From positions 64,001-128,000 of the IMG/VR virus record IMGVR_UViG_641201351_000001: a DNA stretch of 64,000 nt, one strand, 5' to 3'. The stretch is from a virus. Taxonomy: Duplodnaviria; Caudoviricetes. Made by a program: the position numbers and the translations under genes. This document shows positions 24,642 through 52,257 of this stretch, one piece after another (position 1 is the stretch's first letter; each line of letters starts with the position of its first letter). Below the pieces are notes generated by a model. The model was given only the letters and a program-made list of their open reading frames with translations, made no database searches and was not told where the DNA came from.

Positions 24642-25250
24642 TTAAAAGTTTTCTTCTATTTCAAAGAGAACGCAAATATAACTCCTAGAAACGACAATGC
24701 TTTCTGTTTTCTTTGATAGTGAAACTTGGGAGATTAAAGGAAAGTATATTTCTTTTTCTTTGGCAAAATCTTCTTCTTTTGCCGGATAAAAGAAAATGTT
24801 TTTGCTTTCTATTGTTTGATAGGATCTCGTTATTGGGCTGTAAAATTTTTGTTGTGTTGTTTTTATCTTCATGAGAAAAGGTTTTGTTGAGTTGATGAGA
24901 TATCTCTTTTCGTCATCATTAACATAGTTTAAATACATGCTTTCAAAAAGCAAATCTAAAAAGTCTTCTAAGCCGCTTTCTAAATCTTCTTTATTTGGAA
25001 ACATGTCAAAAGTTTTTCTGAGGTAAAAGAAAGATTTATTTACAGCTTCTAGATGAGAGAAGGGGTTATCTAGTCTTCTTTCTTTTAACTGAAAAAGTAT
25101 TGATCTGCTAAAAAACTTTGGTTTTCTAAGAAAAAGAAGCTCTTTGTTTTGTTCAAGGATTTTTTCAACTGCTTCATAAATCATTGACTTAACTTTGTTT
25201 TGGTCAAATTTTTTGCTATCTAGCAAAATTAGTTTTTTCTCTAGCCTCAT
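24642..25250 (-). CDS. array protein, C-terminus EENF
   Basis: Leaderless: TTGACA-17-TAACCT-6 nt-ATG. Confidence 0.75.
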   Translation of the reverse strand: MRLEKKLILLDSKKFDQNKVKSMIYEAVEKILEQNKELLFLRKPKFFSRSILFQLKERRLDNPFSHLEAVNKSFFYLRKTFDMFPNKEDLESGLEDFLDLLFESMYLNYVNDDEKRYLINSTKPFLMKIKTTQQKFYSPITRSYQTIESKNIFFYPAKEEDFAKEKEIYFPLISQVSLSKKTESIVVSRSYICVLFEIEENF

Positions 25251-25348
25251 GTTTTTAGGTTAGCAAAGCGCTAAAGCGTTGTCAAGCGTTATATATTTGA
25301 GATGACAGCGTTTACTTATTTTTTCGTTAGAAAAAACTAAAAATTTTC

Positions 25349-25783
25349 TCAAAACACTTCTCTTAATATCACAAACTCAACTTCTCCAAAGCACAAATAT
25401 AGCGAACTATTTTTATCATAAACTCCAAAAATTGGTTTGTATATTGAATATGATCGGTGCGCATAATCCTTTTCAGACTTTTCTTTTAAGTAATATCTAA
25501 TCAAATCTTCATAATCTTCTATTTGTATAATGTCAAGAAGTTCTAATGTTATTCTTCTTTTGAAATCCTCCACGCTTGCATGTTCTTTTAAAGCAAACAT
25601 TCTTTTTTCTTTCCAGCGATTTAAAGCGTGTTTGTAATTTTTAAAATTCTCTTTGTATTTTGAATACGCTTTCTCAAAATCTTTGTAGTAAGTAATTTTG
25701 TGAGCATAATGCTTTAGAGAAATCATCGGGCTGTAGTGAGGTTGTGCAAAAAAGTATTTTTTGGCCTTTACTTCAAAAATCAT
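25349..25783 (-). CDS. array protein family a, C-terminus REVF
   Basis: Close paralog of 25796..26221. Confidence 0.8.
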   Translation of the reverse strand: MIFEVKAKKYFFAQPHYSPMISLKHYAHKITYYKDFEKAYSKYKENFKNYKHALNRWKEKRMFALKEHASVEDFKRRITLELLDIIQIEDYEDLIRYYLKEKSEKDYAHRSYSIYKPIFGVYDKNSSLYLCFGEVEFVILREVF

Positions 25784-25795
25784 AATTAAACCCCT

Positions 25796-26221
25796 TCAAA
25801 ACACTTCATGAATTTTCACATATTCAACTTCTCCGAAAAATACATAAGCTAGATTACTTTTATCGTGAAACCCCAAAATCGGTTTATGTATCAAAAAGAG
25901 ATTTCTTTTAAACTTCCCATTCAAATATGAAGTTATCAAATCTTCGTAAGTTTCCATTGGAAACATATAAAGAACTTCTGATGTTCTTAAATTTTCAAAG
26001 TATTCTATAGGTTTTAATTCTTCCTCTAAAACAAACATTTTTATTCCCTCCCAACGATTAAATGCAACTTTGTAATTACGAAATTCTTTTTTGTAGGCTT
26101 CAAAAGCATTTTCAAAGGTTTTGTAATAGTAAATTTTGTAAGTATATCTCTTTAAGTGTATCTTTGGATTGTAGTAGGGTTTTACATAGAAATATTTTTT
26201 ACCCTTGACCTCCAATGTCAT
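25796..26221 (-). CDS. array protein family a, C-terminus HEVF
   Basis: GGAGGTG SD; paralog of 25349..25783. Confidence 0.8.
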   Translation of the reverse strand: MTLEVKGKKYFYVKPYYNPKIHLKRYTYKIYYYKTFENAFEAYKKEFRNYKVAFNRWEGIKMFVLEEELKPIEYFENLRTSEVLYMFPMETYEDLITSYLNGKFKRNLFLIHKPILGFHDKSNLAYVFFGEVEYVKIHEVF

Positions 26222-26480
26222 GACTCACCTCCTAGCATCAGGCTAACACAAGGGGTGCTAAAAGGCAAGAAGGGCTTTGGTGTGGAAAAGGGTATTAAAA
26301 TAGGGGGCCCAAAAATATGTGGATAGCGTTTACTTAGTTTTGGCAAAAATAAAAACAAAAAATAATTTCCTAGAAAATCTCTAGTGGAAAAATTTCAAAA
26401 ACTTCTATATCTCCGAACAAAAGATTTCTCTATGTACTATTGGTCTAGTTTTCATTACAAACGGAATGTTTATGTTCACC

Positions 26481-26927
26481 TCAAAAGTAAGGAAAATAGT
26501 CAGGGAAAAATATTAAGTCTACAAGTATTCTCTTCTTCGGATTATATCTATGTGTACTTTCGGCAAAAGACAATATGATTGTATCAGGAACTAAACCTTT
26601 CCTATACGCAGATATTACCTTTTTGTGAATAAAAGGATGTGGGTTTTTAATAAATTCAAAAATGTTTTTGGATTTTCTATAGTTAAGCCTGAAGTTATAG
26701 GGTGTAAAGGTAAAATATTGGTTTAGCATTAAAAACGCCTTAATACCAATATCTACAGGAATATCTGTACTTACATACTTGTATCCGCTATATTTGTGGT
26801 CTTCCTTTAATCCGTATCCTTGAGGATTAAGAAATTCATTTACATCTTGAGCATACTTTTCTAAAATTTTCTTAAAGTGCGAACTTTTTACAATATAAAG
26901 TTTTGCGTAAGTGCTGCTTGCAACCAT
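26481..26927 (-). CDS. array protein, C-terminus FPYF
   Basis: Leaderless: TTGACT-17-TAGGGT-6 nt-ATG. Confidence 0.7.
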   Translation of the reverse strand: MVASSTYAKLYIVKSSHFKKILEKYAQDVNEFLNPQGYGLKEDHKYSGYKYVSTDIPVDIGIKAFLMLNQYFTFTPYNFRLNYRKSKNIFEFIKNPHPFIHKKVISAYRKGLVPDTIILSFAESTHRYNPKKRILVDLIFFPDYFPYF

Positions 26928-27002
26928 GCTTGTACCCTATCACACACCAGGGGAATAGTCAAGGGGGGCTTAGCGTTTACTTAATTTTGGGTAAAAGAAA
27001 AA

Positions 27003-27020
27003 CCTCCCCTTTCGGGGAGG
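27003..27020 (-). terminator. intrinsic terminator
   Basis: CCTCCCC-TTTC-GGGGAGG with a U-tract; same stem-loop as 22874. Confidence 0.8.
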
Positions 27021-27035
27021 CTTGTATTCTTCTTG

Positions 27036-27266
27036 CTATTCAACCAAGATTTTCCTCACTTTACCATTCCTTTCCTCAACCCTAACCTTACCATATTTAG
27101 TATCCTCGTAGCCAATCACTTTCCATGTAGTATTCTTGCGGCAATCTTCACAATATTTAGGAGGACGGGTTTTGCTTTCGGTAACAAACTCCTTTTGGCA
27201 CTTTTGGCACACAATCAAGACCTTCTTTACATGAACATTACGGACCTTCTTTTCGTTCTTGCCCAT
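27036..27266 (-). CDS. basic C4 zinc-ribbon protein, paralog of 22909..23154
   Basis: CQKC-x15-CEDC; GGAGGTG SD gives the start MGKNEKK; same C-terminal RKILVE. Confidence 0.8.
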   Translation of the reverse strand: MGKNEKKVRNVHVKKVLIVCQKCQKEFVTESKTRPPKYCEDCRKNTTWKVIGYEDTKYGKVRVEERNGKVRKILVE

Positions 27267-27416
27267 CTTCTTCACCTCCACCCCCAAGATACCACAAAGA
27301 AAGATGATTGTCAAGGGGGGATTGAGAAGATTGACCTCGGTTGGGCTGGTTTTGCGTGAACTTCAGACTGCAAAGTTGCGAAGTTTGGAAGGGGATTGTT
27401 AAAAATAAACGCTTAA

Positions 27417-27824
27417 TCATAAATTGTCAGTTTCTTTATTTTCTTCTAGTTCCCTCAACTTTTTAGCATAAAACCACTCTAAGAAGATGATAAAAAGTGT
27501 GTTAAATAGGAGATAAAGAACTAAGTCATTTGTATAAATCTTTTTTGTTATCATTTCTGTGGCAAAAAGAAAAATAAATTGAATTACAATGAAAGCTAAT
27601 ATTAAAATCCTTAAAAGGGGAATATCTTTGAAATCTGGATAAGTTTTCAAATAAGAGTCCTCAGCTTTTTTGCCAAAATTCATCATGAATATCGCAAACA
27701 AAATATAAAATTCCTTTTCGCTTAAAGCTAATAATTTTGCAACAATAAAAGAAAATGCGTTATAAATTAAATAGAAAAACATTGACATTCTTATTGATTG
27801 TATTTGTGCTTCATGCTTGTTCAC
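27417..27824 (-). CDS. membrane protein (about 4 TM segments)
   Basis: Several long hydrophobic stretches; GAGGTG SD. Confidence 0.7.
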   Translation of the reverse strand: MNKHEAQIQSIRMSMFFYLIYNAFSFIVAKLLALSEKEFYILFAIFMMNFGKKAEDSYLKTYPDFKDIPLLRILILAFIVIQFIFLFATEMITKKIYTNDLVLYLLFNTLFIIFLEWFYAKKLRELEENKETDNL

Positions 27825-27834
27825 TTTTCACCTC

Positions 27835-28380
27835 TCAGAAAGAAATGTTCTTTTTAACAAGGTAAGCGTTAGCGTACACTCTGAAAATATCTTCTCTTTC
27901 ACCTTTAAACTCTACTTCTAACCTAAAAATTTTTATTGGCACAAAAAGATACGCTGGTATTCTTTGTAGAATTTGCAAATCATTACATGCTTTAAAAAGC
28001 TCTTTAAAGGACTTAAAGAAAAATGCATGGTTTTCTACTCTTTTTAAATTTCTTGAAATTTCTAAAAAAAACTCAGAATCAGCAGATCCTTTTACTGCAA
28101 GTGTTCTTGCTACACTAGCGGGATAAAGAAGCCAATATATGTCTTTCAAATCCACACTTTCTACCGAAACAAGTTTAAGATTTTTTAGTTTTAATATTTG
28201 CGGCCCTAACCCTTCATTTAGCATTTTAAAATCTTTTTCTATTTGAGAAAAATCATCTATGAAAACAACTTTGTTGCTAACGATTGAAGCCAATTTTTCA
28301 GACATTTTTTGAATATAGTCTTTTTCATTAAAGACTGCATATCGTTTATGTAAAACATCTAAGAATGGTGGTACTTCCAT
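27835..28380 (-). CDS. array protein, C-terminus NISF
   Basis: Own promoter and SD. Confidence 0.75.
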   Translation of the reverse strand: MEVPPFLDVLHKRYAVFNEKDYIQKMSEKLASIVSNKVVFIDDFSQIEKDFKMLNEGLGPQILKLKNLKLVSVESVDLKDIYWLLYPASVARTLAVKGSADSEFFLEISRNLKRVENHAFFFKSFKELFKACNDLQILQRIPAYLFVPIKIFRLEVEFKGEREDIFRVYANAYLVKKNISF

Positions 28381-28502
28381 TTAGGTTCACCTCCCCCCAA
28401 GAGGGAGTGTAACACAAGCCTAGGCGCTTGTCAAGAGCGCTTGATAAATGTGTATATATTTTGATAGCGTTTATTTGTTTTATGACAAAACAAAAAAATT
28501 CC

Positions 28503-29045
28503 TTAAAATATCTCGTTAAGGCTATACAAATACATCTTTCCTAGCATTGCAGAAACCTCTATTTTTAGAGAGGTTTCTTCAGGTTTTGTATTTTCAAAGG
28601 TTATGTAATAATCGGGAATAAAGATTTGACCTTTTTTAAAATCAAAGATGTTGTCAATAGCGTAAAAGTATTTTTTGCTTACAACTTTAACTCTTATTTT
28701 GTCGCTATAAATTCCATTTATTCCATTTGCTGGAACAGCATAATCTGCTATGTAAAAAGCTATATCGTTTTTAAAAGTTTTTATTTTTCTTGGCGCAAAT
28801 TTGTCAAGTAGCGATTCAAAAGGTGCGGATCTATAGTGATAAAGATTTTTAACAAATAAAGTTCCCAAATCAAGAATTGTGTCTATATCATATTTGTCTT
28901 CCTCAAAAATCATCATTGGAAGCCTTTTCTTTTCATTAAAGTCAAACTTTTTACCATTCTGAGTAATGTAGTATCTGAAGATAACAAGAACTTCATCAGA
29001 AAATTTTTTCTCAAAAACTTCAGTATTTACGATGTTTCTAATCAT
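28503..29045 (-). CDS. array protein, C-terminus NEIF
   Basis: TAATG coupling to the upstream gene. Confidence 0.75.
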   Translation of the reverse strand: MIRNIVNTEVFEKKFSDEVLVIFRYYITQNGKKFDFNEKKRLPMMIFEEDKYDIDTILDLGTLFVKNLYHYRSAPFESLLDKFAPRKIKTFKNDIAFYIADYAVPANGINGIYSDKIRVKVVSKKYFYAIDNIFDFKKGQIFIPDYYITFENTKPEETSLKIEVSAMLGKMYLYSLNEIF

Positions 29046-29575
29046 TAAAACACCTCCTCTATTTTGTATTCATACAAAACTCCAATTAATCCTTCTATCA
29101 TTCCAGAAAGTTCATCTGTATCTTTCAAAAGTATTTTCCTTTGTGCAACAAATAAAGTATCGCCTTCTATTACTTCTTTTAAATCTTTTATCTCTTCTAT
29201 TTGAGAAGGCCTAAGATAAACAATAGACATTGTGTAGTCATCAATAACATGTTCGCTATAATCATCAATAAAAACCGAGAAATACTTTTTTTCAATAGCT
29301 TTGCTACAAACAACCTTTGTGCTGAAAGTCTTCAACAAATCTCTCTCAAGAGATAAACATGACAAGTTGTTGTAAAAATACTCAATTGATCTGTAAAAAG
29401 TTTTGTTGTCTACGAAATCAGAAATAATGAAAGATTTGTACAAAGAAAACTCTCCTACTATTTCGTCAGCAAAGCGATTGTTTTCGCTAGGATAATAGTC
29501 TAGTTCTAGATACGCTTTATATCTCTTCAAGATTTTAAAGGACTTTGACTCCAAGAAACCTTCTACTGCTTTCAT
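29045..29575 (-). CDS. array protein family b, C-terminus EEVF
   Basis: Paralog of 30337 and 32833 (KAYLELxYYP...GMIEGLxGVLYEYK); start MKAVEG follows a G-rich SD. Confidence 0.8.
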   Translation of the reverse strand: MKAVEGFLESKSFKILKRYKAYLELDYYPSENNRFADEIVGEFSLYKSFIISDFVDNKTFYRSIEYFYNNLSCLSLERDLLKTFSTKVVCSKAIEKKYFSVFIDDYSEHVIDDYTMSIVYLRPSQIEEIKDLKEVIEGDTLFVAQRKILLKDTDELSGMIEGLIGVLYEYKIEEVF

Positions 29576-29618
29576 TCTAATCCCCCCCTTCTTAAAGACA
29601 TAATCATAGCAATGAAAC

Positions 29619-30131
29619 TTAAAAAATCTCTTCACGATGCTTTACTCTATATATTCTTCCAACAAAACATTTTTCAATTAATTCTACCCTTTTAAACCAT
29701 CTGCCTTCTCTAAATGACTCAACAACAGAATCAACAATAAGCAAGTAAACTGCAGGATAAAGCATTTCTAAATCTGTTATTCTCTCTCTTATGTAATTCA
29801 CTTCTGAAATCTTCATTCTATCGTAAACATAAGTTGTGTGAATTACTCTTTTGTTAGAAATAACCTTTTTCTCACTACCACTATGAGCTATAATATAGCA
29901 ATCATACTCAGGGTCAAGAACTTGGTAAAAATAAATGTATTTGCGTCCTATCTTGTCAGTTGTTAGCTTAGATATCTTTTTCAAGTATTCCTCTTTGTTC
30001 AAAATCTTCACTTCTCTAGATATGCCGCTATTAGAGAAAAAGTAGTTGGCATCTAAGATTTCTAAAAAAGGCAAAAAGTTTTTGAGGCTTTTGTAATCTT
30101 CTAGTTCTTTAATAATGCTTTCCCCCACCAT
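29619..30131 (-). CDS. array protein family c, C-terminus EEIF
   Basis: Paralog of 31510 and 32096 (FLPFLEI, KEEY, GRIYxxK). Confidence 0.8.
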   Translation of the reverse strand: MVGESIIKELEDYKSLKNFLPFLEILDANYFFSNSGISREVKILNKEEYLKKISKLTTDKIGRKYIYFYQVLDPEYDCYIIAHSGSEKKVISNKRVIHTTYVYDRMKISEVNYIRERITDLEMLYPAVYLLIVDSVVESFREGRWFKRVELIEKCFVGRIYRVKHREEIF

Positions 30132-30336
30132 GACACCTCCCCTCTTAAAGGCTACTGCTAAGGCCCTATAAAGTCAAGAAGAGAGAGGCAAGGCTTTATG
30201 AAGCACAAAAGCTAGGGGGGGGAAGATATATTTAGGATAGCGTTTACTTGTTTTTAACGAAACAAAAATCAAAAAGCTTCATTTGGAGTGTGGAAATGTC
30301 TATAAAACGGGGGACTATTTACTATGTCTTTAATCA

Positions 30337-30876
30337 TCAAAACACCTCCTCTATTTTGTATTCATATAAAACTCCAGCCAATCCTTCTATCATTCCAGGA
30401 AAATCGCTAACATCATCAAGTAATATTTCTCTTTCAGCAACAAATAGTTGGTAGTTTCCTACTAGTTCTCTTAAGCTTTTTACTTCTTCTATTTGTGAAG
30501 GTTTGAGATATGAAACGACTATTGAGCTAACTTCATTGCTATAATCAACATATTCGTCAATAAAAAGCGAATAATATTTTTTGGCAATTCTCTTGCCACT
30601 AATAACTTTCGTATCAAAAGTTTTAAATAAATCTCTTTCTAATGTTAAACCAGACATAACATTGTAGTAATACTCAATGGCCTTGTAAAAGATTTTGTTG
30701 CTTACATAGTCAGAAATAATAAAAGCCTTACAACGAGAAAATTCTTCAACTATTTCGTCTGCAAAACGATTGCTATTGTTTGGATAGTAATTAAGTTCTA
30801 AGTAAGCTTTGTATATCTTTAATGCTTTAAAGTTAGCCGATTTTAAAAATTCCTCTAAAACTTTCACCTGCATCAC
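30337..30876 (-). CDS. array protein family b, C-terminus EEVF
   Basis: Paralog of 29045. Confidence 0.8.
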   Translation of the reverse strand: MMQVKVLEEFLKSANFKALKIYKAYLELNYYPNNSNRFADEIVEEFSRCKAFIISDYVSNKIFYKAIEYYYNVMSGLTLERDLFKTFDTKVISGKRIAKKYYSLFIDEYVDYSNEVSSIVVSYLKPSQIEEVKSLRELVGNYQLFVAEREILLDDVSDFPGMIEGLAGVLYEYKIEEVF

Positions 30877-30884
30877 CTCCTTTC

Positions 30885-31373
30885 TCAGAACATGTAATCA
30901 TAGGTCAATAAAAACCCCAGACCTAAAATATTGTGTGTTTCTTTCAATTTTCTAAAGCCTGCATTTAACACAAAAAACTCATCGTACTCCATAATAGGAA
31001 GAAACATAAAGTCTGTAAAATAATCTTCAATATGTGGCTTTACGAATGAGAAAATATTTTCCTCGTTTATTTCTTTAAATAAGATTTTTCCGTTTTCATC
31101 GTTAGTTACAAAAAATAGCTTTTCTTCATCGTAAAACTTAATATTTTTCACTTTTCTATCAGCGTCTTGATCTAAGGAAGCTTTTATTGCAGTATTTAAA
31201 AAATGTTCAAAATTTTTTCCTCCCAGATCAGTTTCGTATATGTGAGAAATCGTTGAAGCCACATCATTATCAAAATAATAGTATTTGATAGTTACTATTG
31301 AAAAGTGTCTTGCTTTAAACATTCCACTAATCTTCTTGATTTTTTCGTTTACTAAGCGAATGTATTCTTTCAT
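30885..31373 (-). CDS. array protein, C-terminus DYMF
   Basis: Own promoter; SD gives the start MKEYIR. Confidence 0.75.
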   Translation of the reverse strand: MKEYIRLVNEKIKKISGMFKARHFSIVTIKYYYFDNDVASTISHIYETDLGGKNFEHFLNTAIKASLDQDADRKVKNIKFYDEEKLFFVTNDENGKILFKEINEENIFSFVKPHIEDYFTDFMFLPIMEYDEFFVLNAGFRKLKETHNILGLGFLLTYDYMF

Positions 31374-31509
31374 CTCTTCACCCCCTCGCCTTAGTTTAAA
31401 GGACAAAACGCCTTAGGTCAAGTAGCGTGCAAGCGCTCAGTTGTCTATATATAGAGGATAGCGTTTATCTAACCTTTCACAAAAAAGAAAAAAATAAAAA
31501 ACAATAATC

Positions 31510-32025
31510 TTAGAATACTTCTTTGCGATATTTGATCTTATATATTCGTCCTAAAGTTGACTCCTCAACTATTTCTATTCTTTTTGTAAACATATTTTCT
31601 TTATAAGACGCAATCCTGTAATCAAGTACCAATAAGTAAACATTTGGATAAATGTTACTAACAAACTCTACTTCTCTTTGGAAGCTTTTTATTTTAATGG
31701 GAGAAGAATTATTAAATCTATCATATATGTAAGAAGGAAAACGCTTTCTAACATTAGATAATATATTGCTTTCTTCCCATTCGTGATAAACTAGATAGTA
31801 TTTCGTTTCAGGGCGAAAAATTTGGTGGAAATATAAATACTTCCTGCCTTTTTTGTCAACTACTAGGCGAGATAAAATTCTAATATATTCTTCTTTTTCT
31901 ATCATTTTTATTTCATTAGAAACTTTCCACCCAGAACGAAAGTATTGTGATTTAATTATCTCAAGGAAAGGAAGAAAAGGTTTAATATCTTGAAAATCAT
32001 TCAAGTCTTTTATTAGGTTTTTCAT
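31510..32025 (-). CDS. array protein family c, C-terminus KEVF
   Basis: Paralog of 29619. Confidence 0.8.
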   Translation of the reverse strand: MKNLIKDLNDFQDIKPFLPFLEIIKSQYFRSGWKVSNEIKMIEKEEYIRILSRLVVDKKGRKYLYFHQIFRPETKYYLVYHEWEESNILSNVRKRFPSYIYDRFNNSSPIKIKSFQREVEFVSNIYPNVYLLVLDYRIASYKENMFTKRIEIVEESTLGRIYKIKYRKEVF

Positions 32026-32095
32026 CTCTTTACCTCCCCTCCTCCCTAAAGCTTATACCTAAAGCGCCGTGGAGTCAAGGGAAGGCGCTTAACTC

Positions 32096-32626
32096 TTAAA
32101 AAACTTCTTTATGATGTTTAATTTTGTAAATTCGTCCAAATGTACATCTTTTAACGAAAGTTATTTCTTCTGTCAATTTGTTTTTCATATACAAGTCAAT
32201 CTCAAAATCGTCAACTAAAAAGTAAATCAACTTGTCGCTTTTAAAATTCTCACTAGAAATTCTTAAAAGGACTCTTCTAAACCTTTCTATCTCGTCATTG
32301 GTTATTCCATTAGAAAAAATATATGAGTAATGTCTACAAATACTAGGAATAACTTCAGTTTCCTCTCCAGTATATTCCAATAAACAACAAGATTTTGGGT
32401 AAATGATTTTGTAGAAGAAGGTATACCTATTGTCTTCCTTCTCGCTTATTAACTCAGATATTGTCTGTAAGCATTCTTCTTTTTCAATGATTTCTATATC
32501 TGGACATAAGTTTTCCTTTAAAACAAAATATTTTCCTTCAAAAACTTCTGCAAATGAAAGAATAAGCTTAAATTTAGAAAAGTCGTCAAAATCTTTAACC
32601 AAATCTTTTGCCTCTTCTTTCCTCAT
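32096..32626 (-). CDS. array protein family c, C-terminus KEVF
   Basis: Paralog of 29619 and 31510. Confidence 0.8.
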   Translation of the reverse strand: MRKEEAKDLVKDFDDFSKFKLILSFAEVFEGKYFVLKENLCPDIEIIEKEECLQTISELISEKEDNRYTFFYKIIYPKSCCLLEYTGEETEVIPSICRHYSYIFSNGITNDEIERFRRVLLRISSENFKSDKLIYFLVDDFEIDLYMKNKLTEEITFVKRCTFGRIYKIKHHKEVF

Positions 32627-32832
32627 CCTTACTCGCCCCCTCCTTACTTGCCCCTCCTTGACCTATGACACAATAAAAGCTTACCCCTAAAGCCCCATAA
32701 GGTCAAGGAGGAGGATGAAGCTTTAGGAGAAGGTAAGCCCAAGGCTTTAGGGGGACATAAAACTGGCGAGAAGACATTTATTTAGGATAGCGTTTACTTA
32801 TTTTTGACGAAACAAAAAATCAAAAAGCTTCA

Positions 32833-43076: not shown

Positions 43077-43089
43077 GCTCACCTCCTTC

Positions 43090-43539: not shown

Positions 43540-43551
43540 GTTCGCCTCCTT

Positions 43552-44140: not shown

Positions 44141-44644
44141 TTAAAAAGGATCATTTCTCGCTATACGAATTGTCATTTCTAGATTTGTTTTTACATCTGA
44201 ATCGTAGTTGTCTTTTATTGACTCGTAGATTAAGTAAAACGAAAAAGAAATCTCATAAAAGCTAGGAATTTCTTTCATAGTTTTCTTAACAATCTTTTTC
44301 AAGGTTGACTTAATATTTAGCGAACTGAAATTCTCAATGTTGTAGTGAACAGGCTCAACCTGATAGAAATCTCTTTCTTGTTGACCTGACAACAAATCTT
44401 TAGCATAAAAGTAAACAGAATAAAAATGATAAGCATTAAAATGCAAGTTTGCTATTTCTTCTTTTTGTTTCAAAGACTTAAAGATATTTAGTTCTTTTAT
44501 TATCCTTTTGTGAAGCAGTCTAAAAGCGCTGATAAATTCAGAAAAGTTTGAAGTGTTTAGATGATAGTTCTCAACAGATGTTTCTTTGTCTTTTCTAGCG
44601 AAAGACAACTTTGCGCTATTTACTTTCGCATAGCTAGTCAACAC
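44141..44644 (-). CDS. array protein, C-terminus NDPF
   Basis: Own promoter and GGAGGTG SD; GTG start at ~44644. Confidence 0.72.
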   Translation of the reverse strand: MLTSYAKVNSAKLSFARKDKETSVENYHLNTSNFSEFISAFRLLHKRIIKELNIFKSLKQKEEIANLHFNAYHFYSVYFYAKDLLSGQQERDFYQVEPVHYNIENFSSLNIKSTLKKIVKKTMKEIPSFYEISFSFYLIYESIKDNYDSDVKTNLEMTIRIARNDPF

Positions 44645-44771
44645 AACGCACCTCCTCTCAAGCTCTAGGATAAGCGCTATAGGACGCTTTGTCAAGAGTC
44701 TAGTGTCGTCAACTAAGCGAAGCGAAATAAGGCTTTATCTTGCGTGAAAATCTTATTTAAACTTTAATTCG

Positions 44772-45290
44772 CTAAAACACGCTTAAAAACTTGTACTTTA
44801 AGGATGTGTTAAAAGAAAACACTAACGAAAATTCATCTATGTCAACATAAAGATCCTTTCCTGAAGTCAAAATGAAATTGTTAAGGTTTAGTTTAAGCGC
44901 TTCTTTTATCGCTAGCGAAGAAAAACTTTTAAGAATTTCTTTGCTTTCTTCTAGTTTGCTTAGTTTGTGATTTTGCTTTAAGAAGACTTTGAAATTTGGA
45001 TCCTCATAAAATGCAGAAACTTTAAAATCGTAATGCTCAATATTAAAAAGTTCTAAGGCGTTGAAAAAATGTTTTCTAAGTTCTAAAGCTTTTGTGCTAT
45101 TAATAAACAGCAGATCTTCTTTATCTTTTCTAAATTTCTTTTTGTTTGGCGTAAATATTAATTTTTCTTTTCGAACTAATTTTCTAGAATAGCTAATTCC
45201 ATAACTGACTTCTTTTTCGATGTAAAAATAAAGGCTAACTCTAGTGATTTTGTAAGGCATTTCTTCTTTGACAAAAAGCTCAAACTTCAT
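44772..45290 (-). CDS. array protein family e, C-terminus LSVF
   Basis: Paralog of 43552. Confidence 0.78.
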   Translation of the reverse strand: MKFELFVKEEMPYKITRVSLYFYIEKEVSYGISYSRKLVRKEKLIFTPNKKKFRKDKEDLLFINSTKALELRKHFFNALELFNIEHYDFKVSAFYEDPNFKVFLKQNHKLSKLEESKEILKSFSSLAIKEALKLNLNNFILTSGKDLYVDIDEFSLVFSFNTSLKYKFLSVF

Positions 45291-45327
45291 CTTCCACCTC
45301 CTTAGGAATGTCCTTCCTGGTGGTTCT

Positions 45328-45819
45328 CTAGAAAGGAAAATTGCTAACAACTTCTACTGAACACGATATGGACTGTTTTTTGTAAATTTCCTTATTTTTA
45401 AAATAAGCTGCATAAATCAACAAATTAAATTGCGCCTTTGAAAAAAATCCACAGGTTTTTAAAGCTTTATATAAGAGATTTTCAATGCTGTTTGTTATAT
45501 CAAGGTCAAAAACTTCCTCTAGTTTGTAAGATTCTCCAGAGATATATTCTCCAAAGAGGTCTAAGTCATCAATGAGGAGTCCTTTCTCTATTGGTAAATA
45601 GATAAGGTCAGAAAAAGAGATGGCATTTATCTCTAAATTATTTCCTTTAGCAAAAAGATATTCATCTTTTACTTTGTTAATATGGTTTTTAAGCTCCATT
45701 AAAAATTCTTCATAGTTGCGAAAACTTTTGGCTTCTTCTAAAGCAAAATCTTTTTTTATCTTCTTAGAATATTCTGTTTTGACATAAGCGATTTTGAATT
45801 CTGTGAAGGCTAACCTCAC
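45328..45819 (-). CDS. array protein family f, C-terminus NFPF
   Basis: Paralog of 43090. Confidence 0.78.
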   Translation of the reverse strand: MRLAFTEFKIAYVKTEYSKKIKKDFALEEAKSFRNYEEFLMELKNHINKVKDEYLFAKGNNLEINAISFSDLIYLPIEKGLLIDDLDLFGEYISGESYKLEEVFDLDITNSIENLLYKALKTCGFFSKAQFNLLIYAAYFKNKEIYKKQSISCSVEVVSNFPF

Positions 45820-45997
45820 GCTACACACCTCCCCTCTGCTACCCCAACTATAAGCCTCACAAGGCCCTATGTCAAGGGGGGGTTAGTGTGTTTTTACTAG
45901 AAGAAGCACGGCGAGGCTTTTATTGTGAGTGAAATCTTGTTTAAACATTTTTGGGTGGTACACTATTATCCAAGTCTGGAAGGACAAACAAACAACG

Positions 45998-46513
45998 CTA
46001 GAAAACCTCATTACCCTTCTTGTATTCAAACTTCACTACGAAGAGTTTTTCTGTGCTTTCAACTTCTTTGTTTGCTAGTAGTCCCTGTAGAAGCGTAGGA
46101 AACTTGATGATAGTTGCATTAAAGCGAAAGTAGTAAGTAATGCTCACCATTCCTTCTCTTAAAGCTTTTATTGTGATAGATTTTCCAAATAGGTTTATCA
46201 TTGAAGCGAATTCGTTTTCATTAAAGTTTGCAATTATGTTGTTTTCTTTACAAATGTAAATCGGCAGAGAAACTAGTTTGTAAGGTGAGAACATTAAGTA
46301 GGAGAACTCAAAAGATGAGTCTACTTTTACTAGTCCAGACTTTGAAGATAGGTCTTTTTTAAATTCCTCTAAGTAGTATTTGACTTCTTCAAAAAAGTTG
46401 TAAAAATCAAAATAATCTTTGTATAGTGATTGTTTTAATGCTTTTTTATTTTTTGCCTCCTTGTAGAGAATTGTGATAAAATCTAAGGAGTAAGGAAGAA
46501 AGCTCTCAAACAT
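45998..46513 (-). CDS. array protein, C-terminus NEVF
   Basis: Own promoter adjacent to motif B. Confidence 0.75.
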   Translation of the reverse strand: MFESFLPYSLDFITILYKEAKNKKALKQSLYKDYFDFYNFFEEVKYYLEEFKKDLSSKSGLVKVDSSFEFSYLMFSPYKLVSLPIYICKENNIIANFNENEFASMINLFGKSITIKALREGMVSITYYFRFNATIIKFPTLLQGLLANKEVESTEKLFVVKFEYKKGNEVF

Positions 46514-46560
46514 GTCTTTATCCTCTCGCTTGCGATAATATCGCCTAAATCATAGGCAGG

Positions 46561-47145
46561 TCAAGAGGTTGGTACACTATTATAGGAATCTGGAAGATAC
46601 TCACTAACAGCGAAAGAATAAAGAAATACTATCTCTAGATAAGGATAAAGAAGTTCAAAGTATTTGTATCTTCCTCTAGCAAACGATGCTACTATTTCGA
46701 CACCTTCAAGATTTTCGTTTAATTCTTCTTCTGTATTATTCAAGAAGTTTTCTTTTTCTTTAATTAAAGCGTTATAGACATTTTCAACTGTTGTGTTTCT
46801 TCCTAGGTTTACTTCTTTGATTTCAGGAATGTAGCTCAAGGTCTTTTCTTTCATGTTCTTTATTTGTTTGTGATAAATCTTGACGAAAGAAAGCGTTAAA
46901 TAGAGGTCAAGAGAGAAGTTTGCGTTTAGAACTTTGTCTAAAGATAAAGTTTTTTTGATGAATGTCTTTATGATAAAAGACAGCTTTTCTTCACAAAATT
47001 CTTTTTTGCGAGTATCTAATTCAACATAGATCAAGGTTCTTTTTGATGTATTTCTTATTTCCAGCTTTGATAGCTTTCTTATTTCCAGAGAAGAGCCGCT
47101 ATCAAAGTGTATTGTTGCTTTTTCTAGTGTGATGTTCGTCTTCAT
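46561..47145 (-). CDS. array protein family h, C-terminus LPDSYNSVPTS encoded by motif B
   Basis: Paralog of 48165 (FIKxT..xxKxL, KE.E/RN.L, LE.V..Y). Confidence 0.78.
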   Translation of the reverse strand: MKTNITLEKATIHFDSGSSLEIRKLSKLEIRNTSKRTLIYVELDTRKKEFCEEKLSFIIKTFIKKTLSLDKVLNANFSLDLYLTLSFVKIYHKQIKNMKEKTLSYIPEIKEVNLGRNTTVENVYNALIKEKENFLNNTEEELNENLEGVEIVASFARGRYKYFELLYPYLEIVFLYSFAVSEYLPDSYNSVPTS

Positions 47146-47156
47146 GTTTCTTTACC

Positions 47157-47654
47157 TCAGAATAAGACATTAAACTCAAAAGAAACTTCTATGCGCAAAT
47201 CTTGTGAAATAGTCGCTTTATTAGTTTTTAACTTTGCGAAAGATAAAAAGAAGACATTGAGCGTTTTTTCTTCTTTAATAGCATATTTATAGCGTTTATT
47301 AATTTCACGCTGCATTAGACTAAAAATCTTTTGTTCACTAAATTCTTCTAAGCTAATAAACTTCTTTCCTAAGCGCTTTCTTAGCTCTTTGTAAGGCATA
47401 TCGAAATAATAATCGCTTGATAGCAAAGATACGACTGCAAAATGTCCTAATTTGAAAAAAGGCGAATTAAAGTATCTTTTTAAAATCTCAAAACTCCTTG
47501 AGAAATTAGTAAACGCTTGATCAAAGAATTCGCTTCTTTCTTCTTCAAAAAACTCAGTTTTCCTAGTTGAAAGAAGGCTATCGTTAATCAAATATTCTTT
47601 TATAAACCTCAAACTTTTAGGTTTTTGCAGCGAAAAAAGCTCTTCGATTTTCAT
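47157..47654 (-). CDS. array protein family g, C-terminus NVLF
   Basis: Paralog of 48689 (KR...S..F..G.F.V.SL.S, EEFSE). Confidence 0.78.
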   Translation of the reverse strand: MKIEELFSLQKPKSLRFIKEYLINDSLLSTRKTEFFEEERSEFFDQAFTNFSRSFEILKRYFNSPFFKLGHFAVVSLLSSDYYFDMPYKELRKRLGKKFISLEEFSEQKIFSLMQREINKRYKYAIKEEKTLNVFFLSFAKLKTNKATISQDLRIEVSFEFNVLF

Positions 47655-47662
47655 GCTCTCAC

Positions 47663-48133
47663 CTAAAAGACTTCTTTTCTTTCTAGAGTAGCTTCTACTT
47701 CTAGAAAGACTTTATCAAGGTTTCTTGTTAGATAGCCTAGTTCTATGAAGATTACTATTGCAGTAATTTCTTTTTCGTTCCTAAACGCTTCATTGTAAAT
47801 TTGACTTATGCTTCCTTCAATAAATTTTAGGACTGACTTTTTATTAACGAAAGAAGTATTTTTAACGCCCAAATCTTCAAATTTAGGTGTTCCGTTTTTT
47901 GTATTTGTGATTAGTGTATAGTGTATTTTTAAAATGTCTTGCACAACATCGCCTTCAGAATTTTTTGTTTGCTGATAGTATTTTGAAATGAAACCTTTAA
48001 GGTACTTATAAAAGTCTTTAGCTTTTTCTTCTTTAAGTATCTTTTTAAACGAAAAATTATTTTCTTCATCTTTTGAGTTTTTAAAGTATTCAAAGGCAAA
48101 CTTCACTTTCACGAATTCAAAAGGCGCTAGCAT
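47663..48133 (-). CDS. array protein, C-terminus KEVF
   Basis: Leaderless: TTGACA-17-TAGCAT-6 nt-ATG. Confidence 0.75.
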   Translation of the reverse strand: MLAPFEFVKVKFAFEYFKNSKDEENNFSFKKILKEEKAKDFYKYLKGFISKYYQQTKNSEGDVVQDILKIHYTLITNTKNGTPKFEDLGVKNTSFVNKKSVLKFIEGSISQIYNEAFRNEKEITAIVIFIELGYLTRNLDKVFLEVEATLERKEVF

Positions 48134-48164
48134 AGCTTCATGCTAGCACGACAAGTCAATCGTG

Positions 48165-48677
48165 TCAACTTGGTACACTATTACTAAAGTCTGGAAGATG
48201 TACTATGTCGTAGTAGTATACAACCTCTAGAGATGCAACATGATCATCCTTATAAGGTGATCCTTTAGTGAAGATTATTGAAATGATAATCTGATCCTTT
48301 TTGTCTATGTTTTTTAGCTTTAACAGCTTTGTTAGCAATTCGTTTCTTTCTTTGAGGATTGTCTTAAGCACTTCTTCTGGTTTTATATCGTATCCAAGAG
48401 GTTTTTCTTTAGTATCAAGGTCTTCTTTCCTCATGTTGTGATTGACTGCTAAATAGAAATCTTCGTCTTCATATACTTCAAGAAGTTTTTCAATTTCTAT
48501 TGTTTGTTTTATAAACTTAAGCATTAGTTGAATTGCTTTTTCTTCTAGTTCTTTTTCTTCGTGATCTTTGTTGAAGGTAAATTTGTATTTATTTTCTGCT
48601 GCTTTTAAAAGTCCTTTTGACGCAGCAAAAGACTCCTGTAAGTAAAAAAGTGCGATTTCGCTGAGCTTCAGTTTCAT
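48165..48677 (-). CDS. array protein family h, C-terminus LPDFSNSVPS encoded by motif B
   Basis: Paralog of 46561; its stop codon lies within the next gene's -35 box. Confidence 0.78.
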   Translation of the reverse strand: MKLKLSEIALFYLQESFAASKGLLKAAENKYKFTFNKDHEEKELEEKAIQLMLKFIKQTIEIEKLLEVYEDEDFYLAVNHNMRKEDLDTKEKPLGYDIKPEEVLKTILKERNELLTKLLKLKNIDKKDQIIISIIFTKGSPYKDDHVASLEVVYYYDIVHLPDFSNSVPS

Positions 48678-48688
48678 CTCTTCTCCTT

Positions 48689-49195
48689 TCAAAAAACGCC
48701 GTGCAAAGAGTAGTGCATTTTCAAGAACAATTTTTTTACTATCAAAGATGTTTCTGTCTTTAGCGCAACAAAGAACATAGATTCTAATGATAGGTTTTCG
48801 TTATTTAACAAAGCTTCTCTGTATTTCTTGTAGAAGCATTCTTCTGCTAAACGAGAAAATTTTTCTTCGCTAAATTCTTCAATTCTATAAACATTTTCAG
48901 GAAATCTATCTAGCAGACTTTTTTCTCTGCCATAAATCTCAAAATATTCTTCAGAAAAACTTCCTAAAGAAAAAACTACAAAATAGCCTTTGTGAAAATA
49001 CTTTGACAACACAAACCTTTTGACGATGTTTAACTGCTTCAAAAATACAGCATTAAAGCTTTCAATTTCTTCTTCTGGAAAATTGTAGTAATATTTCTGC
49101 TTTCTAGCTTTAACAAATTTTTTCTTCACGAAGTGCTCAGTCGACACTTCTACGAAAAATATTTTGTGTGTTTTAATCAAGTCTTCAATGCGCAT
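48689..49195 (-). CDS. array protein family g, C-terminus HGVF
   Basis: Paralog of 47157. Confidence 0.78.
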   Translation of the reverse strand: MRIEDLIKTHKIFFVEVSTEHFVKKKFVKARKQKYYYNFPEEEIESFNAVFLKQLNIVKRFVLSKYFHKGYFVVFSLGSFSEEYFEIYGREKSLLDRFPENVYRIEEFSEEKFSRLAEECFYKKYREALLNNENLSLESMFFVALKTETSLIVKKLFLKMHYSLHGVF

Positions 49196-49201
49196 AACAC
49201 C

Positions 49202-49720
49202 TCAAAAGCTAGGAAGAACAATGTCGTTTATTTTTATCGTGTAAGGAGGCTTTAAAGAAAAGATGTGTTCTATTTCTAAAACCCAAACTTTTTCGCTTTG
49301 TTTTATTTCAAAAACTATTCTTGGCGCTATAGATATCGTGTAATCGTTAAAGTTTGTAATATTTTTTCTTATTTCATTTAGTGTTTTTTCTGTGCTTTCA
49401 ATCATTTCATAAGCTTTCTCTTTGAGAAAAAACGAAAGCTTCTTTTTCTTGTCTGACAAAATTTCGTCTTGTTTAATGTTTTTTATGTCCTCGAAGTAAA
49501 ACCTTGTTTTTCCTAAAACATAGCCTCTATAATTGACGAATATGTAAATAGAGATTGTCTTTACATCCTGCTTTAGCGATTTCAATACAAAGCTATCAAG
49601 CGTTTTAATAAGTTTGTCTTTTTCATTCACAGAAAAAACAACATTTGATGCATTCGTGTAGCTAAAGAAGGGTTTGTATATTCCTTTCTTTGTGATTAAG
49701 CAAAGCCTTTCTAATCTCAC
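49202..49720 (-). CDS. array protein, C-terminus LPSF
   Basis: Own promoter adjacent to motif B; GGAGGAG SD. Confidence 0.75.
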   Translation of the reverse strand: MRLERLCLITKKGIYKPFFSYTNASNVVFSVNEKDKLIKTLDSFVLKSLKQDVKTISIYIFVNYRGYVLGKTRFYFEDIKNIKQDEILSDKKKKLSFFLKEKAYEMIESTEKTLNEIRKNITNFNDYTISIAPRIVFEIKQSEKVWVLEIEHIFSLKPPYTIKINDIVLPSF

Positions 49721-49851
49721 TTTTCTCCTCCACAGAAGAAATCATAGAACACAAACCTAAGGCTGTCAAGCGTTGGTACACTATTAATAAGTCTGGAAGA
49801 TGTAAATGACTGACACTTGAAGACTAGGTGTCTATATGCTAGTATGTAGCT

Positions 49852-50388
49852 ATGCATCCTCAGGAAGGTTGGCTTTTTGATGAGTTTGTCTTCTTGAGAA
49901 GAGCGTTTTCTCATTGTTCATATGTTGACAGCAATAACATAGTTCGTGATTATCAGGAAGAAATTGAAAGCTTAGAAAAACTAGAGGCTATTGTTGAATT
50001 AGCAAAGGAAAAATTAAAAGAATATCATAAAGAATTAAAGGAGCTAATTAGGTTTGGATTAAGAATAGAAGAAAATTTTCATTTAATCGCTATAGCAAAC
50101 TTTTATAAGAGGTCATTAAGACACAAGTACGATAGAAAGTTAACGCTTGACGAAGTAATGTCTTTTTCTATTAGAGATGCGATAGACGAAACTATATCGC
50201 ACTTCTTGAGATTTTGTGAAATTGAAGATTTATCTTTGATTTTGAGCTTGAAGTTTCCTTATTTGTCTGTTTACAAGCCTATGTTAATTTCTAGAGCTTA
50301 TGATTGTTTTATGATGATTCCTTATACTTCACAGCTTTTTCACATTAGCGCTGAATTTCTCGTTGATAAAAATTTGCTTGTTTTCTAA
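49852..50388 (+). CDS. inverted array protein, C-terminus LLVF
   Basis: Leaderless TTGAAG-17-TAGTAT-6 nt-ATG; resembles 50385 and family f (LAK.....xxEL, LxEv.s.sI...I). Confidence 0.72.
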   Translation: MHPQEGWLFDEFVFLRRAFSHCSYVDSNNIVRDYQEEIESLEKLEAIVELAKEKLKEYHKELKELIRFGLRIEENFHLIAIANFYKRSLRHKYDRKLTLDEVMSFSIRDAIDETISHFLRFCEIEDLSLILSLKFPYLSVYKPMLISRAYDCFMMIPYTSQLFHISAEFLVDKNLLVF

Positions 50389-51032
50389 AAAAATTCTTCT
50401 ATTTCAGCGATTAAAGAATAATCGAACAAATTTGGTTCGCTTAAAATCTTCACTATCTCTCTAGTGTGTTTGTCAAATATTTTAGTATCTATTTGTTTTG
50501 TGTTTGTCGAATAAAGATCTGATGAAATTTCTTCATCGAAAACATTTAATCGAAAATCAAACTTGAACCGAAAGGAAATTTTTGACATTAAGCCAAAATT
50601 TTTAAGAAAATACATCGTTGCTTTTTCTAACTCTTTTTTTAGAGATAAGGAAGGAAGTTCAGAAAGCTTGTATTCTTTTTTCAAGTCAAATCCTTTGTCT
50701 TCTCCATAGAAGGCTAAAGCGCTAAATTCTAAAGATTCAAAAGTAACGACATTTAATTTGTTGTTGCTGCTTTGATTTCTTACTACTCGTTTTATATTAT
50801 TTAATTCACGATTAAACATCTTAGCTCTATCTTTAGCGAGATTAAAGAAGTTTTTTATTTCTTCAAACACATCACAGTAGTTTGGAAAAAAGTAGCTAAA
50901 TTTTACTTCGCTAAACTCGCAAGAATTTTTTGCAGGCAACTTCTTATCTGCTTTCTTTTCTAGGTAGCTTATGTAGACGAAGCCTCTCGTGAAATTTAGT
51001 ATGTCAAAGGCGCTGAAGGACACTTTAAACAC
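50385..51032 (-). CDS. array protein, C-terminus EEFF
   Basis: GGAGG SD; stop overlaps convergently with 49852..50388. Confidence 0.75.
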   Translation of the reverse strand: MFKVSFSAFDILNFTRGFVYISYLEKKADKKLPAKNSCEFSEVKFSYFFPNYCDVFEEIKNFFNLAKDRAKMFNRELNNIKRVVRNQSSNNKLNVVTFESLEFSALAFYGEDKGFDLKKEYKLSELPSLSLKKELEKATMYFLKNFGLMSKISFRFKFDFRLNVFDEEISSDLYSTNTKQIDTKIFDKHTREIVKILSEPNLFDYSLIAEIEEFF

Positions 51033-51154
51033 CTCCCTCCTACCTCTCTAGTATAGAGGCTAGGCGCAAAGCTGCCAAGCCTTTATTTTTAGGGTAAGCC
51101 TTATTTAAAAGTTTAAACATTTGCTAGATAAAAATCTTTTATGTTCATTATCTC

Positions 51155-51724
51155 TTAAACGCTAGGATGAGGAGTTGGTACACTATTGTATAAGTCTGGA
51201 AGGTTGAATAAATGCTGCCCAAGATCTAAGACTTTGTATTTCAGTTTAAAGACAGAACTGTAGGGAGTTTTGTGTCTTGATCTTTCGTGAGAAGATAAGC
51301 TAACAACAAGATCAAATCTAGTTAAAGGAATTCCTTTTCTTAGACTAAAGAATTCAATTAGTTCTTCTATTGAATCCTCGATGAAGAAATAAAACGCATT
51401 TTTTATTCTCTTTTCATTTGGCATTACTAGCCTCGCAAATTGAATTTGCTTAGACATTTCTAAATCTAGCTTGCATTCTTTGTTTTTTCCTAGTGAATAG
51501 ACATTTATGCTTTTTGAGATCGTTAGGTCAAAGTCTTTCTTAATTATTGCTTTTGACAATACTTTTTCTATAAGCCTCTCTAAAGAGTTTTTATTTTTCG
51601 CTGATATTTCTGCTAAATAATGAAACTTAAACTCTTCAAGGTTCTTTTCATTGAAATACTCGTAGTTTATTTCGATTTGATTAAGAAAAAAGGTTTGCTT
51701 GTTGATTTTGATAAGTTCTTTCAT
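51155..51724 (-). CDS. array protein, C-terminus LPDLYNSVPTPHPSV encoded by motif B
   Basis: Third protein reading through motif B. Confidence 0.75.
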   Translation of the reverse strand: MKELIKINKQTFFLNQIEINYEYFNEKNLEEFKFHYLAEISAKNKNSLERLIEKVLSKAIIKKDFDLTISKSINVYSLGKNKECKLDLEMSKQIQFARLVMPNEKRIKNAFYFFIEDSIEELIEFFSLRKGIPLTRFDLVVSLSSHERSRHKTPYSSVFKLKYKVLDLGQHLFNLPDLYNSVPTPHPSV

Positions 51725-51726
51725 CT

Positions 51727-52257
51727 TCAGATCTCAATTTTTTTTCTTTCAAAATACACTAAAAACCAAATGACATACTTTTCAGGAAAAGGTATTGTTT
51801 TATTTTTAAAGCTTGCGACAATTCTTTGCGCAAAAGATATCTTCAAGGTCTTGTTTTCGTATATGCAGTCTTTAAACATGCTATTTTCGATTATCTTTTC
51901 TATTCTTTCAGAAATCATTTTTGATAGGTCTACTTCGCTGACATCTTCAATGAATTCTTTGTTTGAACCTAGAAAATTTGTTAAATTTTTTATTCTCTTT
52001 TTCTTTTGTCCTTGTACTTCAATTTCAACATCATTAGCGATGACGACATCTAAATTCTCTTTTTTGATTTCTTTGAATGTTTTAGCGAGAAATTTTTTTG
52101 CAGCTTCAAAGTCTTCTGAAACAAACTTTCTTTGGTTGAATAATTCGTTTGTAAGGCCGCTAAAATCAATTCTTCTATAAATGCTAACTGCACAATTTTT
52201 CATTAAAAATCTTTGTTCGCCTAAGTCTTTGTTATAAAACAAAAGCTCTTTTCTCAT
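51727..52257 (-). CDS. array-like hypothetical protein
   Basis: GGAGG SD gives the start MRKELL. Confidence 0.7.
   Translation of the reverse strand: MRKELLFYNKDLGEQRFLMKNCAVSIYRRIDFSGLTNELFNQRKFVSEDFEAAKKFLAKTFKEIKKENLDVVIANDVEIEVQGQKKKRIKNLTNFLGSNKEFIEDVSEVDLSKMISERIEKIIENSMFKDCIYENKTLKISFAQRIVASFKNKTIPFPEKYVIWFLVYFERKKIEI

Follow-up and report, generated by a model that had tools for sequence, protein, structure and literature searches.

Several replication proteins, among them E. coli SSB (...DDDIPF) and gp2.5 and gp4 of phage T7, carry acidic C-terminal tails that terminate in phenylalanine. These tails are borne on long disordered linkers and are read by a pocket of the partner, so that a single short tail is used with many partners or by many carriers. 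The motif QL[SD]LF mediates binding to the sliding clamp, as in Pol IV, which has a little-finger domain and a C-terminal clamp peptide (1unn_D), while class III PDZ ligands follow the pattern [DE]-x-hydrophobic-COOH. Here, we describe an array of about 40 small genes from a tailed phage, most of whose products end in x-[E/D]-[V/I/L]-Phe-COOH. The array lies on the minus strand at 24642..52299 of the window, i.e., the whole 64,000-nt stretch analysed (bases 64001-128000 of IMG/VR record IMGVR_UViG_641201351_000001), and corresponds to YS40_091 to YS40_136 on the basis of ORF (open reading frame) calls and the YS40_Isch annotation. The complete genome is a single 152,372-bp contig with 32.6% G+C and is treated, from sequence identity, as Thermus phage phiYS40 or a near-identical isolate. 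For one array protein, identity is 99.6% with Thermus phage TMA and 95.7% with YS40_Isch, whose record labels the homologs of array genes "similar to YS40_091 ... YS40_136". TMA and YS40_Isch (from a phage collection) and two IMG/VR contigs are the only close relatives.

In what follows, genes are named by their first coordinate in the window, residues are counted backwards from the terminal Phe, and tail statistics refer to the 32 Phe-ending proteins longer than 100 aa. The array tail shares with the SSB and T7 tails a free C-terminal Phe and acidic residues just before it, but it abuts a strand, whereas theirs sit on linkers. SSB has Pro at −1; in the array, Pro occupies −1 in 2/32 tails and −3 is acidic in 7/32. 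SSB is also one carrier with many partners, whereas the array presents many carriers with one tail. Only the product of 44141 (NDPF; DDPF in relatives) comes close to an SSB-type tail, and that definition was rejected for the array. Compared with the clamp motif, [ED]-[VIL]-F is found in about 20 of the 32 tails and the exact D/E-L-F in 43090, 43552, and 38138; Q is not among the six commonest residues at −4, and L occupies −3 in 3/32. The SSB/T7 tails and the clamp motif are the closest mechanisms, and the array tail satisfies neither definition in full. The acidic −2 residue and hydrophobic terminus of class III PDZ ligands recur in 21/32 tails, a match of pattern only. The EEVD tail of Hsp70 and Hsp90, which is bound by a TPR clamp, was rejected as a parallel: the terminal residue in the array is Phe, not Asp, and the endings IEEVF and LEEVF share only EEV with it.

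At the level of gene organization, the nearest counterparts are viral multigene families with a shared terminal adaptor, namely the poxvirus ankyrin/PRANC proteins and the MGF families of African swine fever virus. Like the array, these are tandem, fast-diverging paralogs that combine a variable body with a conserved C-terminal element, an arrangement typical of host-takeover or arms-race genes. They belong to eukaryotic viruses, however, and their adaptor is a folded domain of ~30-50 aa, whereas the array belongs to a phage and shares a tripeptide. In T-even phages, early proteins of dissimilar sequence adopt one fold (PMC12152347), which parallels the array in that early ORFans share a fold despite unrecognisable sequences; the portion of that article available to us mentions neither a shared terminal motif nor a 28-kb array.

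Terminal phenylalanine in the array

ORFs of at least 60 aa were called mechanically, and overlaps were removed greedily. Within 24642-52299, 33/45 ORFs have Phe as their last residue, compared with 10/124 in the remainder of the genome of 152,372 bp (Fisher test, odds ratio 31, p = 1.6e-16); with the local Phe frequency of 0.085 as expectation, the binomial p is 4.8e-26. Two of the 45, short plus-strand ORFs at 26903-27085 and 27033-27359, are doubtful, and without both the count is 33/43; an earlier reading of the DNA from sequence only had arrived at 33/44. Its list of last tripeptides also agrees with the recount: EVF occurs 11 times; EIF, ELF, DVF, GVF, and EVI twice each; and DLF, DPF, ENF, EFF, and SVF once each. 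The sole array gene on the plus strand (49852-50388), which had been singled out as an inverted gene with the same ending, does terminate in Phe (LVF).

The enrichment is more than a count of paralogs, because it survives collapse to families and lineages. When proteins are grouped by BLASTP (E < 1e-3), 25/34 groups end in Phe, one of the 25 being mixed (I, I, F; p = 4e-20), and under the most conservative lumping of families, the Phe-ending lineages number 10/15 (p = 4e-8). The corresponding stretches of the relatives are likewise rich in such ends (29/54, 27/60, and 22/32 ORFs). In the large Thermus myovirus phiLo (178,531 bp), 10/192 ORFs end in Phe, and neither such an array nor a match to the hidden Markov models (HMMs) of the array families was found there. 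The comparison of terminal residues proposed with the earlier reading thus finds the enrichment to be specific to the array, shared by the relatives, and absent from phiLo. A 187-aa ORF ending KKFF just outside the array (53442..54005, minus strand) may be a further member, although the HMMs of the family alignments A2 and A3 do not detect it.

Composition and conservation of the tail

The terminal Phe carries 3.55 bits of information, followed by −1 with 1.77 bits (V17, L5, I2) and −2 with 1.46 bits (E17, D4); each position further upstream carries less than 1 bit. Hydrophobic residues peak at −4, −6, −8, −10, and −12 (18-23 of the 32), while −2, −3, and −5 are mainly charged or polar. Hydrophobics at every second residue are expected for a strand with one buried face, in agreement with the β-strand-like run before the tag that had been noticed earlier. 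The consensus [K/R/N/E]-[E/D]-[V/I/L]-Phe-COOH directly follows a β-strand in almost all array proteins.

The codons of the tail vary. Phe is encoded by TTT in 19 cases and TTC in 13, all four Val codons and all three stop codons are used, and the six codon strings quoted in the sequence-only reading are all present where it placed them. Among 82 ortholog pairs that reach both C-termini, which are not independent of one another, 51 share the same Phe codon, 24 differ synonymously, and seven differ non-synonymously. The last seven are F to Y changes in the orthologs of 25349 and 25796, or involve paralogous best matches. This synonymous turnover (24 versus 7), together with the retention of the tail in every full-length variant fetched, upholds the earlier contention that selection acts on the peptide. 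As judged from these comparisons, the terminal Phe is the sole invariant position and is under purifying selection on the peptide, not the DNA.

Orthologs at 47-66% identity retain the Phe despite changed neighbours, as in KDVF to EEVF, EEFF to KETF, and DYMF to DYTF or DYKF; the homolog P0029 retains it as well. An exhaustive phmmer search with the product of 47663-48133 returned a single representative among 1.84 billion proteins, 58% identical and ending KEIF, so deep alignments are impossible. DNA of this more divergent lineage (~58% identity) was not found in viral, genome, or metagenome contigs. Of the fetched homologs of group 2, the larger of the two main families described below, 21/22 end in Phe, and the 22nd is a two-gene read-through fusion with Phe at both junctions. 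Among 14 fetched homologs of group 1, seven end in Phe, three are fragments from contigs of at most 1.2 kb, and four have Phe followed by Trp and an extension, the Trp being, we infer, a TGA stop codon misread by the gene caller. An alternative genetic code, suggested by P0024, P0031, P0032, P0035, and P0038 in which TGA is read as Trp, was judged to be such a gene-caller artefact; TGA ends 56/169 ORFs here. Calling of TGA as Trp in metagenome pipelines fuses YS40-like genes or extends them beyond the terminal Phe. One YS40-like protein, P0008, is filed under a "Candidatus Aenigmatarchaeota" metagenome-assembled genome, probably through a binning error.

Genes found only in a relative, the IMG/VR contig L004, also end in Phe (6137-6652, EKFF; 16539-17216, KEIF). 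The relative-only sequence EDNPFEKFF has an internal PF, beyond which the chain is extended and once more terminates in Phe. The final position of the tail is strictly Phe, save for Ile in one subfamily and Tyr in one ortholog set; outside this pattern, the 83-aa ORF 40451 changes from KIF to KIS among relatives. Orthologs that lose the Phe freely, which would have spoken against a shared tag, are not what is found: full-length variants keep it, with few subfamily exceptions (Ile, Tyr, and group 3, below).

Protein families of the array

Group 1 comprises ten minus-strand genes recognized by BLASTP and alignment: 25349-25783, 25796-26221, 28503-29045, 29045-29635, 29619-30131, 30337-30876, 30885-31406, 31510-32025, 32096-32626, and 32833-33354. 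Their products share the ending hydrophobic-G-x-hydrophobic-(Y/F)-x-hydrophobic-K-x-x-E-(V/I)-F, with the Gly at −11, and BLASTP divides them into the subfamilies 29045/30337/32833, 29619/31510/32096, and 25349/25796. Group 2 has about 18 members between 38531 and 51032, recognized from alignments A2 and A3, hhalign, and AlphaFold2 (AF2) models. They are 38531, 39077, 39616, 40803, 41422 (in which Phe is followed by PYV), 41969, 42510, 43090, 43552, 44141, 44772, 45328, 45998, 47157, 47663, 48689, and 50385 on the minus strand and the inverted 49852-50388 on the plus strand. In their common plan, an N-terminal P-[FY] strand and a helix precede two strands; helix 2 is introduced by an L-E-E-F-type motif, and two long strands then lead to x-[ED]-[VIL]-F. 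Group 3 consists of 46561-47145 (minus strand), 48165-48692, and 51155-51724, recognized by sequence, BLASTP, and hhalign, whose products end in L-P-D-x-x-N-S-V-P-(T)-S. The orthologs in YS40_Isch and L004 lack this tail and stop just before it.

BLASTP resolves the array into 8 small families and 26 singletons, and iterative HMM searches of a pool that included the relatives did not merge the array families. Among 378 family pairs compared globally by hhalign, the best links are 43090 with 44141 (P = 2.3e-5), 41969 with 42510 (8.3e-5), and 38531 with 47663 (7.8e-4), of which the first two pass Bonferroni correction. The HMM of alignment A3 finds the 12 window members of that alignment, a circular result; its four best non-members (43552, 39616, 49202, and 40451; E 0.01-0.1) are all array genes, and the first ORF from outside the array follows at E 0.15. 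In A3, which spans families and has 21 rows, no column but Phe is invariant, and in A4, the group 1 alignment, no other column reaches 90%. Groups 1 (A4) and 2 (A3) have no similarity detectable by hhalign (probability 0.1).

On sequence evidence, the array is the product of tandem duplication and fast divergence and comprises at least two superfamilies plus singletons. The sequence-only reading had pictured a variable cargo library. In part this does not hold, as most carriers are tandem paralogs in two superfamilies (by motifs, length, and the predicted fold of group 2); what stands is that the tail spans bodies unrelated in sequence, namely two superfamilies without similarity and several singletons.

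The array proteins are soluble and restricted to this phage lineage; the only membrane-like one is encoded at 27417..27824 (minus strand; hydropathy 2.76) and ends DNL. PHROGs assigns the 45 proteins to 31 families, all specific to the lineage and none with a function. A Pfam scan of the same 45 finds no family beyond three matches of one protein each, to dCMP_cyt_deam_1, MobI, and Spectrin_5 (E 1.3e-5 to 7.7e-3). A glycosyltransferase label attached to 38531-40107 (TMA_110/111, YS40_114, phrog_17351) was rejected: 38531, 39077, and 39616 have no Pfam match at E <= 0.01, and the phrog_17351 label only repeats the record annotation.

Traces of rearrangement are visible within the array. The 205-nt gap at 30132-30336, downstream of 30337-30876, begins with a TGATG stop/start overlap like that at the 29045/28503 junction, and an ATG-led frame continues into it. 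The gap may be the remnant of a lost 28503-like copy, which would suggest that a unit of several genes was duplicated. Transposases are inserted at different sites inside the arrays of TMA (L001 28651-30673) and YS40_Isch (L002 33026-34492, annotated as IS607 family), and YS40 has none there.

Predicted fold of group 2

The model of the 43090..43539 product (minus strand), obtained with the cross-family alignment, has a predicted local distance difference test (pLDDT) score of 79.4 and a predicted template modelling (pTM) score of 0.76, the five models spanning pLDDT 77.6-79.4. Strands are predicted at residues 7-16, 55-69, 72-84, 114-127, and 131-145 and helices at 28-51 and 94-108, and the tail D-E-L-F occupies 146-149. 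The model of the 47663..48133 product (minus strand), predicted from the single sequence (pLDDT 69.3, pTM 0.69), is β-α-β-β-α-β, with the last 12 residues unplaced. The order of elements is common to both models, the former adding the fifth strand at 131-145. Group 2 is thus predicted to adopt a generic ferredoxin-like β-α-β-β-α-β-β fold. Sequence profile searches of the PDB gave no match and no specific solved relative for group 2. Foldseek against BFVD returned weak rows only (E >= 2e-3), some of them unnamed proteins of 159-185 aa that, from their accession range, we presume may be TMA, YS40, or Isch paralogs and on which we do not rely, and scores in the ESM Atlas reach at most 0.87.

Possible functions of the tail

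We favour, at a little less than even chances, the reading in which the tail is a shared recognition handle for one common, putative partner. A common partner is favoured because constraint in these proteins is strongest at the very terminus, which is strictly Phe and strictly last and spans bodies without detectable similarity, and because a buried core site would usually exchange I, L, V, M, and F freely. A free C-terminal Phe with an acidic residue two positions before it would fit a pocket in such a partner. In this way, early proteins of many kinds would be delivered to a single machine, or be acted on by it, even as their bodies diverge. The first-choice candidate is encoded within the array itself, by a MoxR-type AAA+ ATPase gene (35280..36323, minus strand; PF00004 4.3e-7, PF07728 3.6e-5) and its neighbour (33575..35263, minus strand). 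The latter specifies a protein of 562 aa in which a Q/N-rich linker separates an HExxH motif (HEILH) from a VWA-like DUF2201 domain (PF09967 7.5e-7) harboring D-T-S-G-S. Neither product ends in Phe. The two genes have the make-up of a MoxR AAA+/VWA pair, in which an AAA_5/AAA domain gene adjoins a VWA-domain gene with DxSxS, and the DxSxS site of VWA domains, resembling a metal ion-dependent adhesion site, binds acidic ligands. A host hub that reads C-terminal peptides, e.g., the sliding clamp, would be the second choice, and an oligomer interface of the array proteins themselves the third. More specifically, x-[E/D]-[V/I/L]-Phe-COOH might be an address tag that plugs some 30 phage early effectors into one hub, be it the MoxR/VWA machine or a host hub such as the clamp, a proposal that we put forward tentatively.

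Several observations weigh against a handle. Most carriers are paralogs, and inheritance explains much of the spread of the tail. No flexible linker separates the last strand from the tail, and the Phe is in register with the inward-facing −4, −6, and −8, which fits a packed structural residue too; the last block of the group 2 model (pLDDT 77) is compatible with such a packed Phe. The product of 41422-41979 has its Phe three residues from the end (RRTFPYV) in all relatives, those of 38531 and 39077 end EVI, and group 3 replaces the tail with its own. Moreover, MoxR/VWA pairs occur in many phages not known for such arrays, no SSB was found in the phage genome, and the 25 Pfam families listed, out of 53 in the rest of that genome, include no PDZ, TPR, or clamp domain (the host was not searched).

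The main competing reading, a serious one although in our view less probable, is structural: in it, all carriers descend from one ancestral small α/β domain whose last strand and E-V-F cap or anchor the C-terminus on a hydrophobic layer, with no reader at all. Anchoring of this kind could help at 65-75 °C, and the tail would then be the slowest-evolving part of the fold. Clear tandem paralogy (BLASTP, hhalign, alignments), similar lengths of 130-230 aa, a tail that directly continues a long strand and keeps the register of its inward face, and the placement of strand 131-145 in the sheet by AF2, with moderate confidence, all point this way. So does the confident, consistent model from the cross-family alignment, an uncontrolled comparison in that its query differs from that of the single-sequence run. 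Against common descent, groups 1 and 2 lack profile similarity. In addition, the ends of a fold are normally under the weakest constraint, whereas here the terminus is under the strongest; a strict Phe at a strict end is unusual for a core site, and the extension in EDNPFEKFF recreates a terminal Phe. Nor is the ending general in this thermophilic phage, whose other proteins rarely have it (10/124). Recognition of the tail includes as a special case a C-terminal degron, by which a host protease or the phage MoxR/VWA-HExxH pair would remove early proteins on time for the early-to-middle switch. The confinement of the tail to a region with sigma-70-like promoters and the presence of the AAA+ ATPase and HExxH protein inside the array are in keeping with a degron, but beyond the HExxH motif, a peptidase domain has no Pfam support, and known bacterial C-terminal degrons such as that of ssrA (...LAA) look different; we regard it as unlikely.

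Two further explanations were considered. In one, the peptide is an incidental by-product of translational coupling, with GAGGTG (E-V) serving as the Shine-Dalgarno (SD) sequence of the next gene and TTT or TTC as spacer ahead of an overlapping stop and start. Relative to genome usage, the tail codons are indeed GC-shifted towards GAG (8/17), GTG (7/17), and TTC (13/32). In 29045, 38531, 39077, and 39616, where the gap to the next gene is zero or negative, GGAGGTG or GGGGGTG is found 5 nt ahead of the next start and also serves as an SD sequence; at 29045..29056 (minus strand), for instance, GAG GAG GTG TTT runs into TAATG. The overlap in these four tightly coupled genes accounts in part for the codon shift. 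Coupling as a general cause is contradicted by at least 15 Phe-ending genes with downstream gaps of 46-664 nt and non-SD codons (GAAGTT, GAAGTA). Genes with gaps of 6-12 nt also have their own SD sequence past the stop codon, and Phe is retained through synonymous change. Coupling could have been the origin of the tail, but as its explanation it is very improbable. Still less credible is an outer-membrane β-signal or other export signal, which a terminal Phe after an amphipathic strand recalls in its resemblance to the C-terminal signature of outer-membrane proteins. No signal peptide or hydrophobic segment occurs in any Phe-ending protein (maximum 19-residue hydropathy below 1.6 in all), −2 is acidic (E/D in 21/32) and −1 hydrophobic (27/32), the reverse of the Y-x-F pattern, and the predicted fold is α/β; on these grounds, the β-signal was excluded.

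A literature search turned up no account of these paralogs or of phage early proteins ending in Phe, although the primary phiYS40 and phiTMA papers and their supplements may describe the families. The YS40 passages of PMC3351154, PMC6452258, and a 2026 bioRxiv preprint mention neither tail nor families. Should the tail serve in docking or handling, a single peptide would open the entire early programme of a thermophilic phage to experiment: one bait could retrieve the hub, and one point change per gene could disable each effector. Phages would then join eukaryotic viruses and secretion-system effectors in using a short linear motif as the basis of effector libraries. We know of no bacteriophage equivalent of such a library, here tandemly amplified to 18% of the genome. 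Even if the tail is structural, the array stands out among phage multigene families for its size (~28 kb of 152 kb), and for its predicted thermostable small α/β fold no specific solved relative was found.

Neighbouring genes and regulatory sites

Elsewhere, the genome carries genes for Pol A, a DnaB-like helicase, primase, RecA, RNR, ThyX, and PrkA/DUF444/SpoVR, as well as structural genes. Upstream of the array, at 1085-15883 of the window, lie three giant ORFs of 1527, 1744, and 1524 aa; two have no match above the Pfam cut-offs, and the third matches an SNF2-like helicase. The Q/N-rich segment that separates the HExxH region from the VWA-like domain in the 33575-35263 protein is long and of low complexity, spanning residues ~215-300.

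Strong TTGACA-17-TATAAT-like sites sit in the intergenic gaps of the array on the coding strand. One at 44071..44099 (minus strand) is a perfect match, and further promoter-like sites at 49769, 45875, and 41963 (coding strand) match at 11/12 positions. A transcription study of phiYS40 reportedly placed −10/−35 promoters in the early class; with that assignment, the sigma-70-like sites fit early expression of the array.

The 11-mer AAGTAAACGCT occurs 27 times (<=1 mismatch) in 20658-38098 against 2.4 expected, a number reached in 0/100 shuffles. The sites are mostly intergenic on the minus strand, usually just past a gene stop and 40-90 nt upstream of a TTGAC box, with a T-tract/A-tract imperfect palindrome before them and ATCCTAAATATAT after. 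AAGTAAACGCT may act in the early region as a regulatory or terminator-like element. The same part of the window contains a duplicated small ORF pair (20867-21094 and 21328-21558) and a second pair (22909-23154 and 27036-27314), with the motifs MKVEVS...AYRLK and ...GKVR[IV]EER[KN]GK[IV]RKILVE. Upstream of both pairs are repeated promoter-plus-SD sequences (repeat families D2 and D3).

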